The position numbers and the translations under genes were made by a program. From NCBI RefSeq assembly GCF_024502345.1, contig NZ_JALDNN010000001.1: a DNA stretch of 64,000 bases, one strand, 5' to 3'. This DNA comes from Escherichia coli (GTDB lineage: Bacteria; Pseudomonadota; Gammaproteobacteria; Enterobacterales; Enterobacteriaceae). Shown one piece after another: positions 936 to 6,750 of the stretch (positions are counted from its first letter, which is position 1; every line of letters starts with the position of its first letter). The notes beneath the pieces were generated by a model. The model worked only from the letters and a program-made list of their open reading frames with translations. It made no database searches and was not told where the DNA came from.

Positions 936-1088
936 CGCCATTTCAAGCGTGATAAAACTGCTTAACAAATCAGCATAACTCATTAATAACATAAGAGAAT
1001 GCGATGGCTTGCAAAAGTAATTCATTGCCTGAATAATATAAATTATATATAAATCTTATTTATGTGATAGTTTGAATTATCATTATAA

Positions 1089-1844
1089 ATGATACTCACT
1101 CTCAGGGGCGTTGCGGTTTACTATGCAGATACGGATTTTTTCAGCTGGCGTCGCACGATGCTGTTGCGTTTTCAGAGGATGGAGGCCGCAGAAGAGGTCT
1201 ACCATGAAATAGAGCTTCAGGCTCAGCAGCTGGAGTACGATTACTATTCGTTATGTGTTCGCCACCCGGTACCATTCACGCGACCTAAAGTGGCTTTCTA
1301 CACCAATTACCCTGAGTCGTGGGTTAGTTATTATCAGGCAAAAAATTTTCTCGCAATTGATCCTGTGCTGAACCCTGAAAACTTTAGTCAGGGCCATTTA
1401 ATGTGGAATGATGACTTATTCAGCGAAGCACAGCCATTATGGGAAGCCGCGCACGCACATGGTTTACGCCGCGGTGTCACTCAGTATTTAATGCTGCCAA
1501 ATCGGGCGCTGGGCTTTTTGTCCTTTTCCTGTTGCAGCACGCGCAAAATACCCATTCTTAGTGATGAACTGCAATTAAAAATGCAGTTACTGGTGCGCGA
1601 AAGTCTGATGGCTCTGATGCGCTTAAATGATGAAATAGTGATGACGCCAGAGATGAATTTCAGCAAGCGCGAAAAAGAAATTCTGAAATGGACGGCGGAA
1701 GGGAAGACATCAGCAGAGATAGCGATGATTTTGTCAATCTCTGAGAATACGGTCAATTTCCATCAGAAAAACATGCAGAAAAAAATCAATGCACCAAATA
1801 AGACCCAGGTGGCCTGTTACGCGGCCGCTACTGGCTTAATTTGA
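1089..1844 (+). CDS. sdiA: LuxR-family quorum-sensing regulator SdiA; start codon uncertain (see findings)
   Basis: Long frame with autoinducer-binding N-domain and C-terminal LuxR HTH (SISENTVNFHQKNMQKKI); the expected ATG at 1123 is out of frame with the body. Confidence 0.8.
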   Translation: MILTLRGVAVYYADTDFFSWRRTMLLRFQRMEAAEEVYHEIELQAQQLEYDYYSLCVRHPVPFTRPKVAFYTNYPESWVSYYQAKNFLAIDPVLNPENFSQGHLMWNDDLFSEAQPLWEAAHAHGLRRGVTQYLMLPNRALGFLSFSCCSTRKIPILSDELQLKMQLLVRESLMALMRLNDEIVMTPEMNFSKREKEILKWTAEGKTSAEIAMILSISENTVNFHQKNMQKKINAPNKTQVACYAAATGLI

Positions 1845-2471: not shown

Positions 2472-3528
2472 GGCTTTGTTGAATAAATCAGATTTCGGGT
2501 AAGTCTCCCCCGTAGCGGGTTGTGTTTTCAGGCAATACGCACGCTTTCAGGCATACCTGCTTTCGTCATTTTGTTCAGCGCTCGTACCAGGGCCATAGCC
2601 TCTGCAACCTGACCATCGTAGTCACGCAGTGTCAGTGAACCCCCGAACAGCTGTTTTACCCGGTACATCGCCGTTTCCGCTATCGAGCGACGGTTGTAAT
2701 CTGTTGTCCATTTCCACCGCGCATTACTCCCGGTCATTCGCTGATTAGCCACTGCACGGTTACGGTCTGCATATTCACCGGGCCAGTAACCCGCACCTTT
2801 TCGGGGAGGGATAAGCGCGCTGATTTTCTTACGCCGCAGTTCATCGTGACATAGCCGGGTATCGTAAGCGCCATCGGCGGCGGCTGACCTGATTTTCCGG
2901 TGGGTTTGCCGGATTAACCCGGGGAAGGCCTCTGAGTCCGTAACGTTGTTCAGCGACAGGTCAGCGCAGATGATTTCATGTGTTTTACTGTCAACGGCGA
3001 GATGCAGCTTACGCCAGATACGGCGGCGTTCCTGGCCATGCTTTTTGACTTTCCACTCGCCTTCACCGAAGACCTTCAGCCCGGTGGAATCAATTACCAG
3101 GTGTGCGATTTCACCCCGGGTGGGCGTTTTGAAACTGACATTAACCGACTTTGCCCGCCTGCTGACACAGCTGTAATCCGGGCAGCGTAGCGGAACGTTC
3201 ATCAGAGAAAAAATGGAATCAATAAAGCCCTGCGCAGCGCGCAGGGTCAGCCTGAATACGCGTTTAATGACCAGCACAGTCGTGATGGCAAGGTCAGAAT
3301 AGCGCTGAGGTCTGCCTCGTGAAGAAGGTGTTGCTGACTCATACCAGGCCTGAATAGCTTCATCATCCAGCCAGAAAGTTATGGAGCCACGGTTGATGAG
3401 GGCTTTATTGTAGGTGGGCCAGTTGGTGATTTTGAACTTTTGCTTTGCCACGGAACGGTCTGCGTTGTCGGGAAGATACGTGATCTGATCCTTCAACTCA
3501 GCAAAAGTTCGATTTATTCAACAAAGCC
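2472..3528 (-). mobile_element. IS903-family (IS5 family) insertion sequence, 1057 bp
   Basis: Terminal inverted repeats ggctttgttgaataaatc (2472-2489) and its reverse complement (3511-3528); single DDE transposase ORF; flanked by perfect 9-bp direct repeats. Confidence 0.9.
2528..3496 (-). CDS. IS903-family DDE transposase
   Basis: 322-aa ORF filling the IS; N-terminal ...KITNWPTYNKALINRGS... typical of the IS903 group. Confidence 0.85.
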   Translation of the reverse strand: MKDQITYLPDNADRSVAKQKFKITNWPTYNKALINRGSITFWLDDEAIQAWYESATPSSRGRPQRYSDLAITTVLVIKRVFRLTLRAAQGFIDSIFSLMNVPLRCPDYSCVSRRAKSVNVSFKTPTRGEIAHLVIDSTGLKVFGEGEWKVKKHGQERRRIWRKLHLAVDSKTHEIICADLSLNNVTDSEAFPGLIRQTHRKIRSAAADGAYDTRLCHDELRRKKISALIPPRKGAGYWPGEYADRNRAVANQRMTGSNARWKWTTDYNRRSIAETAMYRVKQLFGGSLTLRDYDGQVAEAMALVRALNKMTKAGMPESVRIA

Positions 3529-3537
3529 AATCGAATT
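3529..3537. repeat. 9-bp target-site duplication (right) of IS903-family insertion
   Basis: aatcgaatt, identical to 2463-2471. Confidence 0.85.
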
Positions 3538-3659: not shown

Positions 3660-4316
3660 TTGATCAACGTTCTACTTGTTGATGACCACGAACTGGTGCG
3701 CGCAGGGATACGACGCATTCTGGAAGATATAAAGGGTATAAAAGTCGTCGGTGAGGCATCGTGCGGTGAAGACGCCGTTAAGTGGTGCCGGACAAATGCC
3801 GTTGACGTGGTGCTAATGGACATGAGTATGCCGGGCATTGGCGGTCTTGAGGCGACGCGTAAAATCGCGCGTTCCACAGCTGATGTCAAAATCATCATGC
3901 TTACCGTCCATACAGAAAACCCTTTACCAGCGAAAGTCATGCAGGCCGGTGCTGCGGGCTACCTCAGCAAAGGCGCGGCTCCGCAGGAAGTCGTGAGTGC
4001 GATTCGTTCTGTCTATTCAGGGCAGCGTTACATTGCTTCTGACATCGCTCAACAAATGGCGTTAAGCCAGATCGAACCAGAAAAAACAGAAAGCCCATTT
4101 GCCAGTTTGTCTGAACGTGAATTGCAGATTATGCTGATGATCACCAAGGGCCAGAAGGTCAATGAGATCTCAGAACAGCTCAATCTCAGTCCGAAAACGG
4201 TGAACAGCTACCGCTATCGTATGTTCAGTAAACTAAACATTCATGGCGATGTTGAGCTGACTCACCTGGCAATTCGCCATGGTCTGTGTAATGCGGAGAC
4301 ATTATCAAGTCAGTGA
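3660..4316 (+). CDS. uvrY: Response regulator UvrY (BarA/UvrY two-component system), TTG start
   Basis: 218 aa; receiver domain (LLVDDH...D54 region) plus C-terminal LuxR-type HTH; stop overlaps uvrC start. Confidence 0.9.
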
Positions 4317-6201: not shown

Positions 6202-6750
6202 ATGCAATTTAATATCCCTACGTTGCTTACACTGTTCCGTGTCATCCTTATCCCATTCTTTGTATTGGTCTTTTATCTGCCTGTCACCTGGTCGCCGTTT
6301 GCCGCCGCGCTCATTTTCTGCGTCGCGGCGGTGACTGACTGGTTCGATGGTTTTCTGGCACGCCGCTGGAACCAGAGTACCCGGTTTGGTGCTTTCCTTG
6401 ACCCTGTCGCAGATAAAGTTCTCGTGGCTATCGCCATGGTGCTGGTAACCGAGCATTATCACAGCTGGTGGGTGACCTTACCGGCAGCAACGATGATCGC
6501 CCGTGAAATTATTATTTCTGCGCTACGCGAATGGATGGCGGAGTTGGGTAAACGCAGTAGCGTGGCTGTCTCCTGGATTGGGAAAGTGAAAACCACTGCC
6601 CAGATGGTGGCGTTGGCATGGCTGCTGTGGCGTCCGAACATTTGGGTTGAGTACGCCGGTATTGCACTTTTCTTTGTGGCTGCGGTACTGACTCTGTGGT
6701 CAATGTTGCAATATTTGAGCGCTGCGCGTGCAGATTTGCTTGATCAGTGA
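6202..6750 (+). CDS. pgsA: CDP-diacylglycerol--glycerol-3-phosphate 3-phosphatidyltransferase
   Basis: 182-aa membrane protein with CDP-alcohol phosphatidyltransferase motif D...G...A...G...D...D ([10 protein letters not shown]). Confidence 0.9.

Follow-up and report, generated by a model that had tools for sequence, protein, structure and literature searches.

A lineage-specific one-base deletion at the start of sdiA, a probable null or strongly hypomorphic allele of Escherichia coli

The sdiA gene encodes the quorum-signal receptor of E. coli. We show here that one G is lost at the junction of codons 2 and 3 of sdiA in a stretch of 64,000 nucleotides from contig NZ_JALDNN010000001.1 (assembly GCF_024502345.1), hereafter the window. 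The deletion is genuine and lineage-specific, and the resulting allele is probably null or strongly hypomorphic. We propose that one G of the GG shared by codons 2 and 3 was lost in a small E. coli lineage whose sdiA is related to alleles of the phylogroup A/B1 type. Ribosomes loading at the ATG at 1123, the experimentally used and CsrA-repressed start, would then translate 29 codons in the wrong frame before reaching a stop, and the initiation region that belongs to sdiA would no longer serve the SdiA body. The upstream ATG at 1089 that remains in the SdiA frame lacks an SD, is predicted to base-pair within a hairpin of the leader and may fall outside some transcripts. The net effect would be the loss of an orphan acyl-homoserine-lactone (AHL) receptor, a loss that annotation pipelines would mask by calling the 251-aa upstream-start ORF SdiA.

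The deletion and the reading frames around the sdiA start

Read directly from the window, the region around the start runs GGTTTACT ATG CAG ATA CGG ATT TTT TCA GCT, with the ATG at position 1123 (all sdiA features are given on the plus strand). The closest intact alleles are those of strains E24377A and L73, which both read ATGCAGGATACG at the start, corresponding to MQDTDFF. Alignment with these two alleles reveals exactly one G absent at the junction between CAG and GAT, leaving ATGCAG-ATACG in the window, where the single G left of the ancestral GG in ATGCAGGATACG stands at 1128. An earlier sequence-only reading had placed ATG CAG at 1123-1128, counted five nucleotides where six are expected and named alignment with related sdiA genes as a check; the alignment agrees and assigns the shortfall to this single missing G. 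The same reading took MQDKDFF as the normal N-terminus, which is correct for K-12 but not for the relevant ancestor, which differs at codon 4 and starts MQDTDFF, as does the EHEC protein of PDB entry 4Y13. Besides the deletion, the alignment contains three substitutions that distinguish the window from E24377A and L73, at positions 1530, 1545 and 1622.

The consequences for the reading frames are clear-cut. The native sdiA start now heads a frameshifted ORF of 29 codons (1123..1212; MQIRIF...STMK), and our re-translation yields the peptide MQIRIFSAGVARCCCVFRGWRPQKRSTMK followed by TAG at 1210-1212, as had been read before. A search of this ORF returned no NCBIfam match. The sole ORF that contains the SdiA body spans 1089..1844 and encodes 251 aa, which bears out the earlier statement that the SdiA frame is open from the upstream ATG. 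This ATG at 1089 is the only SdiA-frame start codon 5' of the deletion. The 251-aa product starts MILTLRGVAVYYADTDFFSW and is composed of 13 new residues (MILTLRGVAVYYA), standing in place of Met1-Gln2, and of SdiA residues 3-240. Where sdiA is intact, ATG 1089 opens a 39-codon ORF (MILTLRGVAVYYAGYGFFQLASHDAVAFSEDGGRRRGLP; equivalent to 1089-1205 of the window and found at 1690-1809 of sequence L001) in a frame other than that of sdiA. This small ORF of intact strains overlaps the sdiA start and both CsrA-site regions.

By family membership the 251-aa product is an SdiA. It scores 485.8 bits against the SdiA equivalog model NF007561 (cut-off 350), with residues 14-251 matching profile positions 3-240, and a score above the cut-off leads pipelines to name the product SdiA. 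The domains PF03472 (N-terminal, autoinducer-binding) and PF00196 (C-terminal GerE/LuxR helix-turn-helix) are on record for it, the product is collinear with PDB entries 4Y13 and 4LFU, of which 4Y13 aligns to residues 13-251, and the gene order tcyN-sdiA-yecF-uvrY is conserved at the locus. Owing to the 1-bp deletion, the SdiA body is out of frame with its established start (Met1 of MQD(T/K)DFF). An AlphaFold2 model of the product, built on a shallow alignment of 12 E. coli SdiA variants, reached a mean pLDDT of 42.6 and a pTM of 0.30 and is uninformative on the N-terminal extension. The same holds for the SdiA constructs in the PDB, which carry C-terminal tags and have chain lengths of 246 and 248 aa.

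Two of the three substitutions change the protein. A C>T change at 1530 results in R137C and a G>A change at 1545 in E142K, and both are private to the lineage: they occur in no complete RefSeq E. coli genome, as judged with 45-mers built to seed a match in carriers alone. In a sample of other E. coli SdiA sequences, residues 137 and 142 hardly vary. The third change, T>C at 1622, is synonymous and younger than the deletion, which in one carrier dataset (L005) is found together with the ancestral T. R137C and E142K are compatible with relaxed constraint, and two events prove nothing. Two private non-synonymous changes and a synonymous one, with no stop added, are too few events to judge decay, and the SNP density of sdiA is not above that of its flanks.

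The deletion is real and inherited

A 1-kb query (900-1900) was compared with 5,426 complete RefSeq E. coli genomes and found a match in 5,374, the best matches being 99.6% identical and one base longer. With a 61-base query across the site, the deletion was found in none of the 5,374 genomes that have an sdiA match; all full-length matches to this query had 98.4% identity, the value expected from one gap. Absence from the complete genomes would be expected for a sequencing or assembly artefact in the window, the first of three options that the sequence-only reading had left standing. We consider such an artefact barely credible. The exact 251-aa protein is present in NCBI under four accessions (WP_060659236.1, KUG78092.1, KUG78686.1 and MCQ7030240.1) and is encoded on at least eight contigs. 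In three independent datasets, GCA_050022275.1, Logan SRR35661341 and Logan ERR3153747 (L003, L004 and L005), the DNA at 1089-1160 is identical to the window, deletion included, and the deletion is linked to the same two private amino acid changes. These datasets are told apart by other SNPs, since they differ from the window at 0-5 positions (five in L004, one in L005). A GG dinucleotide is, furthermore, neither a homopolymer nor a typical error context.

The SNPs that separate the carriers also order the events. The ancestral base, that of the intact E24377A allele, is kept at 863 in L004 and at 1622 in L005, while the window is changed at both positions, so that the deletion, R137C and E142K are older than those SNPs. 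Judged by these nested haplotypes, the three changes are inherited through some diversification of the lineage. The allele shows two marks of a frameshift pseudogene, an indel that disrupts the frame relative to close intact orthologues and the presence of this indel, real and inherited, in three datasets. Assembly error, as a candidate explanation, is ruled out by the identical deletion in these datasets with their nested haplotypes. From the earlier options there remain an N-terminally altered SdiA and a poorly expressed allele, and both still stand.

Translation starts, transcript leader and CsrA sites

The deletion leaves the native start region untouched. AGGGG (1104..1108), the only SD-like element of this region, lies 14 nt 5' of ATG 1123 and forms an anti-SD duplex of -6.3 kcal/mol, and ribosomes should therefore still load at 1123 and make the 29-residue nonsense peptide. 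ATG 1089 had been described as lacking a ribosome-binding site, and the duplex energies support this: its anti-SD duplex is +0.4 kcal/mol, compared with the -6.3 kcal/mol of the native start and -7.4 kcal/mol for the neighbouring tcyN. In addition, ATG 1089 is paired by the 3' arm of an A/U-rich leader hairpin (1056..1092) in both the MFE and the centroid structure; the fold of the leader region as a whole is not significant (z-score -0.86). Neither a compensating change nor a new SD was found, and positions 864-1529 are otherwise identical to the intact allele. Evidence for wild-type initiation at ATG 1089 was sought in TRAINSPOTTER, in which sdiA is not listed; in INRI-seq, sdiA is listed with zero signal, even at the annotated start.

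Which starts are available to ribosomes also depends on where transcription begins. In consensus scans the best sigma-70-like promoter is TTGCAA-17-AATAAT (1009..1037) with a predicted start at ~1044, and a transcript from there would cover ATG 1089. Weaker candidate promoters from such scans have predicted starts between 1078 and 1103, some of them 3' of 1089. Among the consensus matches is a TATCAT -10 element at 1078-1083 with a predicted start at ~1089-1091, which could give a leaderless AUG. Reportedly, four putative sdiA start sites lie within 85 nt of the initiation codon.

These predicted transcripts bear on the possibility that the lineage makes a functional, N-terminally extended SdiA, a protein of 251 aa translated from ATG 1089 that would still bind AHL and DNA at physiologically useful levels. 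We regard this as unlikely. Initiation could take place on a leadered transcript, such as that predicted from ~1044, or on a leaderless one from A1089, the ORF is open with residues 3-240 kept, and NCBI annotates the 251-aa form as SdiA. Ribosomes, however, should still load at the intact native start in the wrong frame, ATG 1089 is SD-less and paired, and R137C and E142K are not only private but also non-conservative. The leader MILTLRGVAVYYA is hydrophobic save for one Arg; SdiA is known to be poorly soluble, which counts against a fusion of this kind.

We favour a poorly expressed or null allele over a functional extended SdiA because the SD is missing, the hairpin covers ATG 1089 and no upstream change compensates; the two are inseparable by sequence alone. 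A null or strongly hypomorphic allele would also be in line with the frame from 1123 that stops at 1210, with the private changes at nearly invariant residues and with sdiA being a dispensable gene that is repeatedly lost. Several observations count against it. The 251-aa ORF keeps residues 3-240 and passes the SdiA equivalog model, and ATG 1089 falls within the transcript predicted from the best promoter-like site. SD-less, A/U-rich leaders can still allow some initiation, and native SdiA itself is made at very low levels, such that a low amount might suffice. Finally, no further stop or indel has been gained, an absence that is uninformative in so young a lineage.

The internal ATGs at 1158 (Met13) and 1179 (Met20) are both in the SdiA frame and could in principle give an N-terminally truncated SdiA. 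AGAGG precedes ATG 1179 and forms a duplex of -5.2 kcal/mol, yet no spacer separates it from the ATG, which falls inside the downstream CsrA site and within a stable local structure (-20.7 kcal/mol). No SD precedes ATG 1158 (duplex -2.2 kcal/mol). Loss of 12-19 N-terminal residues of the ligand-binding domain would likely destabilise the protein, and we judge initiation at either codon to be very improbable as a source of SdiA.

An equally slim chance is given to a leaky frameshift, by which some ribosomes from ATG 1123 would regain the SdiA frame at a run of six T's that is read directly at 1136..1141, 8 nt past the deletion. Slippage there might occur as a -1 P-site slip of tRNA-Phe or through a U inserted by RNA polymerase slippage, two routes that even jointly we think scarcely probable. 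The product would be a 240-aa SdiA starting MQIRIFFSW, with DTD replaced by IRI at residues 3-5. ATT TTT/TCA slipped by -1 does read on as TTC AGC TGG, which is the SdiA frame, and the native start region is intact. Programmed frameshifting, however, builds on a conserved, in-phase slippery heptamer with a stimulatory element. Here a run of just six T's does not fall in phase with an X XXY YYZ heptamer, a stimulatory element is not apparent, and the lesion, absent from 5,374 genomes, is a recent and lineage-specific one rather than a conserved recoding site. Slippage of this kind typically amounts to ~1% or less.

The start of sdiA is also a target of the Csr system. CsrA represses sdiA translation via two sites, both in the coding region, of which the upstream one overlaps the ribosome-binding segment (PMC7652899), and a CsrA site has been placed 60 nt into the sdiA coding sequence (PMC5694010). 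Early in its coding sequence the ancestral allele has GGA twice between +5 and +13 (CAGGAUACGGAU). Of these triplets the first is lost with the deleted G, and the second survives at 1133..1135, in the upstream CsrA region. GGAUGGA at the position of the downstream CsrA site (+55 to +61) is present at 1177..1183, where it overlaps the in-frame ATG 1179. Compared with the CsrA-repressed sdiA initiation region (Yakhnin et al. 2011, summarised in PMC7652899 and PMC5694010), the native start, AGGGG and the downstream GGAUGGA are thus all kept here, whereas one GGA of +5 to +13 is gone and the region controls a 29-codon nonsense ORF, not SdiA. An extended SdiA might escape from CsrA repression, since its synthesis would begin 34 nt nearer the 5' end and the upstream CsrA site lacks one GGA. 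Carried further, the allele could represent regulatory rewiring instead of loss, with SdiA made from an SD-less and possibly leaderless AUG at 1089 and the AHL receptor uncoupled from the Csr system, which we consider quite improbable. The GGA loss is relevant only where the SdiA body is translated. Between the two CsrA-site regions, in the early sdiA coding region, a consensus match to a terminator-like hairpin with a T-rich tail (TGGCGTCGCACGATGCTG TTGCGTTTTC) is found at 1146-1172, and it is also present in intact alleles.

The sdiA locus and sdiA loss in E. coli

A complete IS903B (IS5 family, 1,057 bp) lies between yecF and uvrY at 2472-3528, leaving 131 bp to the TTG start codon of uvrY at 3660. 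The element has terminal inverted repeats GGCTTTGTTGAATAAATC, is bordered by a 9-bp target duplication (AATCGAATT) at 2463-2471 and 3529-3537, and encodes its transposase on the minus strand (2528-3496). Unlike the window, the carriers of the WP_060659236.1-type allele that were examined have no IS903B beside uvrY. Its absence from the deletion carriers L003 and L004 indicates that the insertion is younger than the deletion and isolate-specific. In a published case, an IS5 that had inserted naturally 260 bp 5' of uvrY abolished control of this gene by NhaR, H-NS and SdiA and altered the Csr circuit (PMC6307784). Together, the sdiA deletion and the IS903B near uvrY would amount to two hits in the SdiA-UvrY-Csr loop of this isolate. 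If rewiring were true, the IS903B would be a second hit in the SdiA-UvrY-CsrB/C-CsrA loop and would hint at selection on the circuit. A scan of the window for SdiA boxes (AAAAGN8GAAAA, at most 2 mismatches) yielded 160 matches against ~105 expected, which is too degenerate to place sites. The only loose matches in the yecF-uvrY spacer, at 2160-2178 and 2290-2309 (at most 2 mismatches), both lie upstream of the IS903B insertion point, and the insertion would part them from uvrY; given the degenerate motif, we attach no weight to this.

Further downstream, after pgsA (6202-6750) and a tRNA Gly-Cys-Leu cluster, a genomic island is located at the leuZ tRNA-Leu site (~7,200-35,000 of the window). 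By comparison with CFSAN061762 (98% identity over 24.5 kb) it contains integrases, a B-family DNA polymerase, a DUF2787 protein and a type I restriction-modification system with M, S and R subunits. This stretch is covered to at least 80% in only 214 of the 5,426 complete genomes.

The closest known counterpart of the allele is the intact, MQDTDFF-type SdiA of accession WP_001154276.1 (E24377A, L73, H10407 and others; EHEC structure PDB 4Y13), which resides in the same tcyN-sdiA-yecF-uvrY locus. The 1-kb regions are 99.6% identical, residues 3-240 are collinear, and both proteins share the Autoind_bind and GerE architecture and the match to the SdiA equivalog HMM. What sets the window apart from this type is the missing G at codon 2/3 together with R137C and E142K. 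The entries WP_060659236.1, KUG78092.1, KUG78686.1 and MCQ7030240.1 (251 aa, transcriptional regulator SdiA) hold the identical protein, and their carrier contigs are identical at the deletion. They are shown as ordinary SdiA, with no hint that a substitute start stands in for a frameshifted native one.

Disruption of sdiA has occurred elsewhere. An IS1-interrupted sdiA is known from strain SY3626 (NZ_CP059283.1) and also from strains 74-2 and ES6, a natural and lineage-restricted disruption in a near-identical allele background. In these IS1 cases a mid-gene insertion splits the protein and the gene is annotated as a pseudogene, whereas the present allele lacks 1 bp at its very start, retains a full-length ORF and is not flagged. 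The three top-scoring matches carry IS1 in or at sdiA, representing independent disruptions in at least three genomes; the one of the three that was inspected, SY3626 (L006, NZ_CP059283.1 1863689-1866067), has the IS1 inside sdiA and a split pseudogene. Among the 5,426 complete E. coli genomes, 52 have no sdiA match and 12 more have partial matches only.

Public databases already list the allele under the ordinary SdiA name. It is an ordinary natural variant of a well-known, dispensable regulator, one more sporadic loss or weakening of an orphan quorum-sensing receptor, and it opens no new question. Its lesson is one of caution in annotation, because a frameshift close to the start goes unnoticed once pipelines move to an ATG further 5' and label the product SdiA, as in WP_060659236.1. 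Surveys that count sdiA as present would consequently overlook that this lineage has probably lost AHL sensing.
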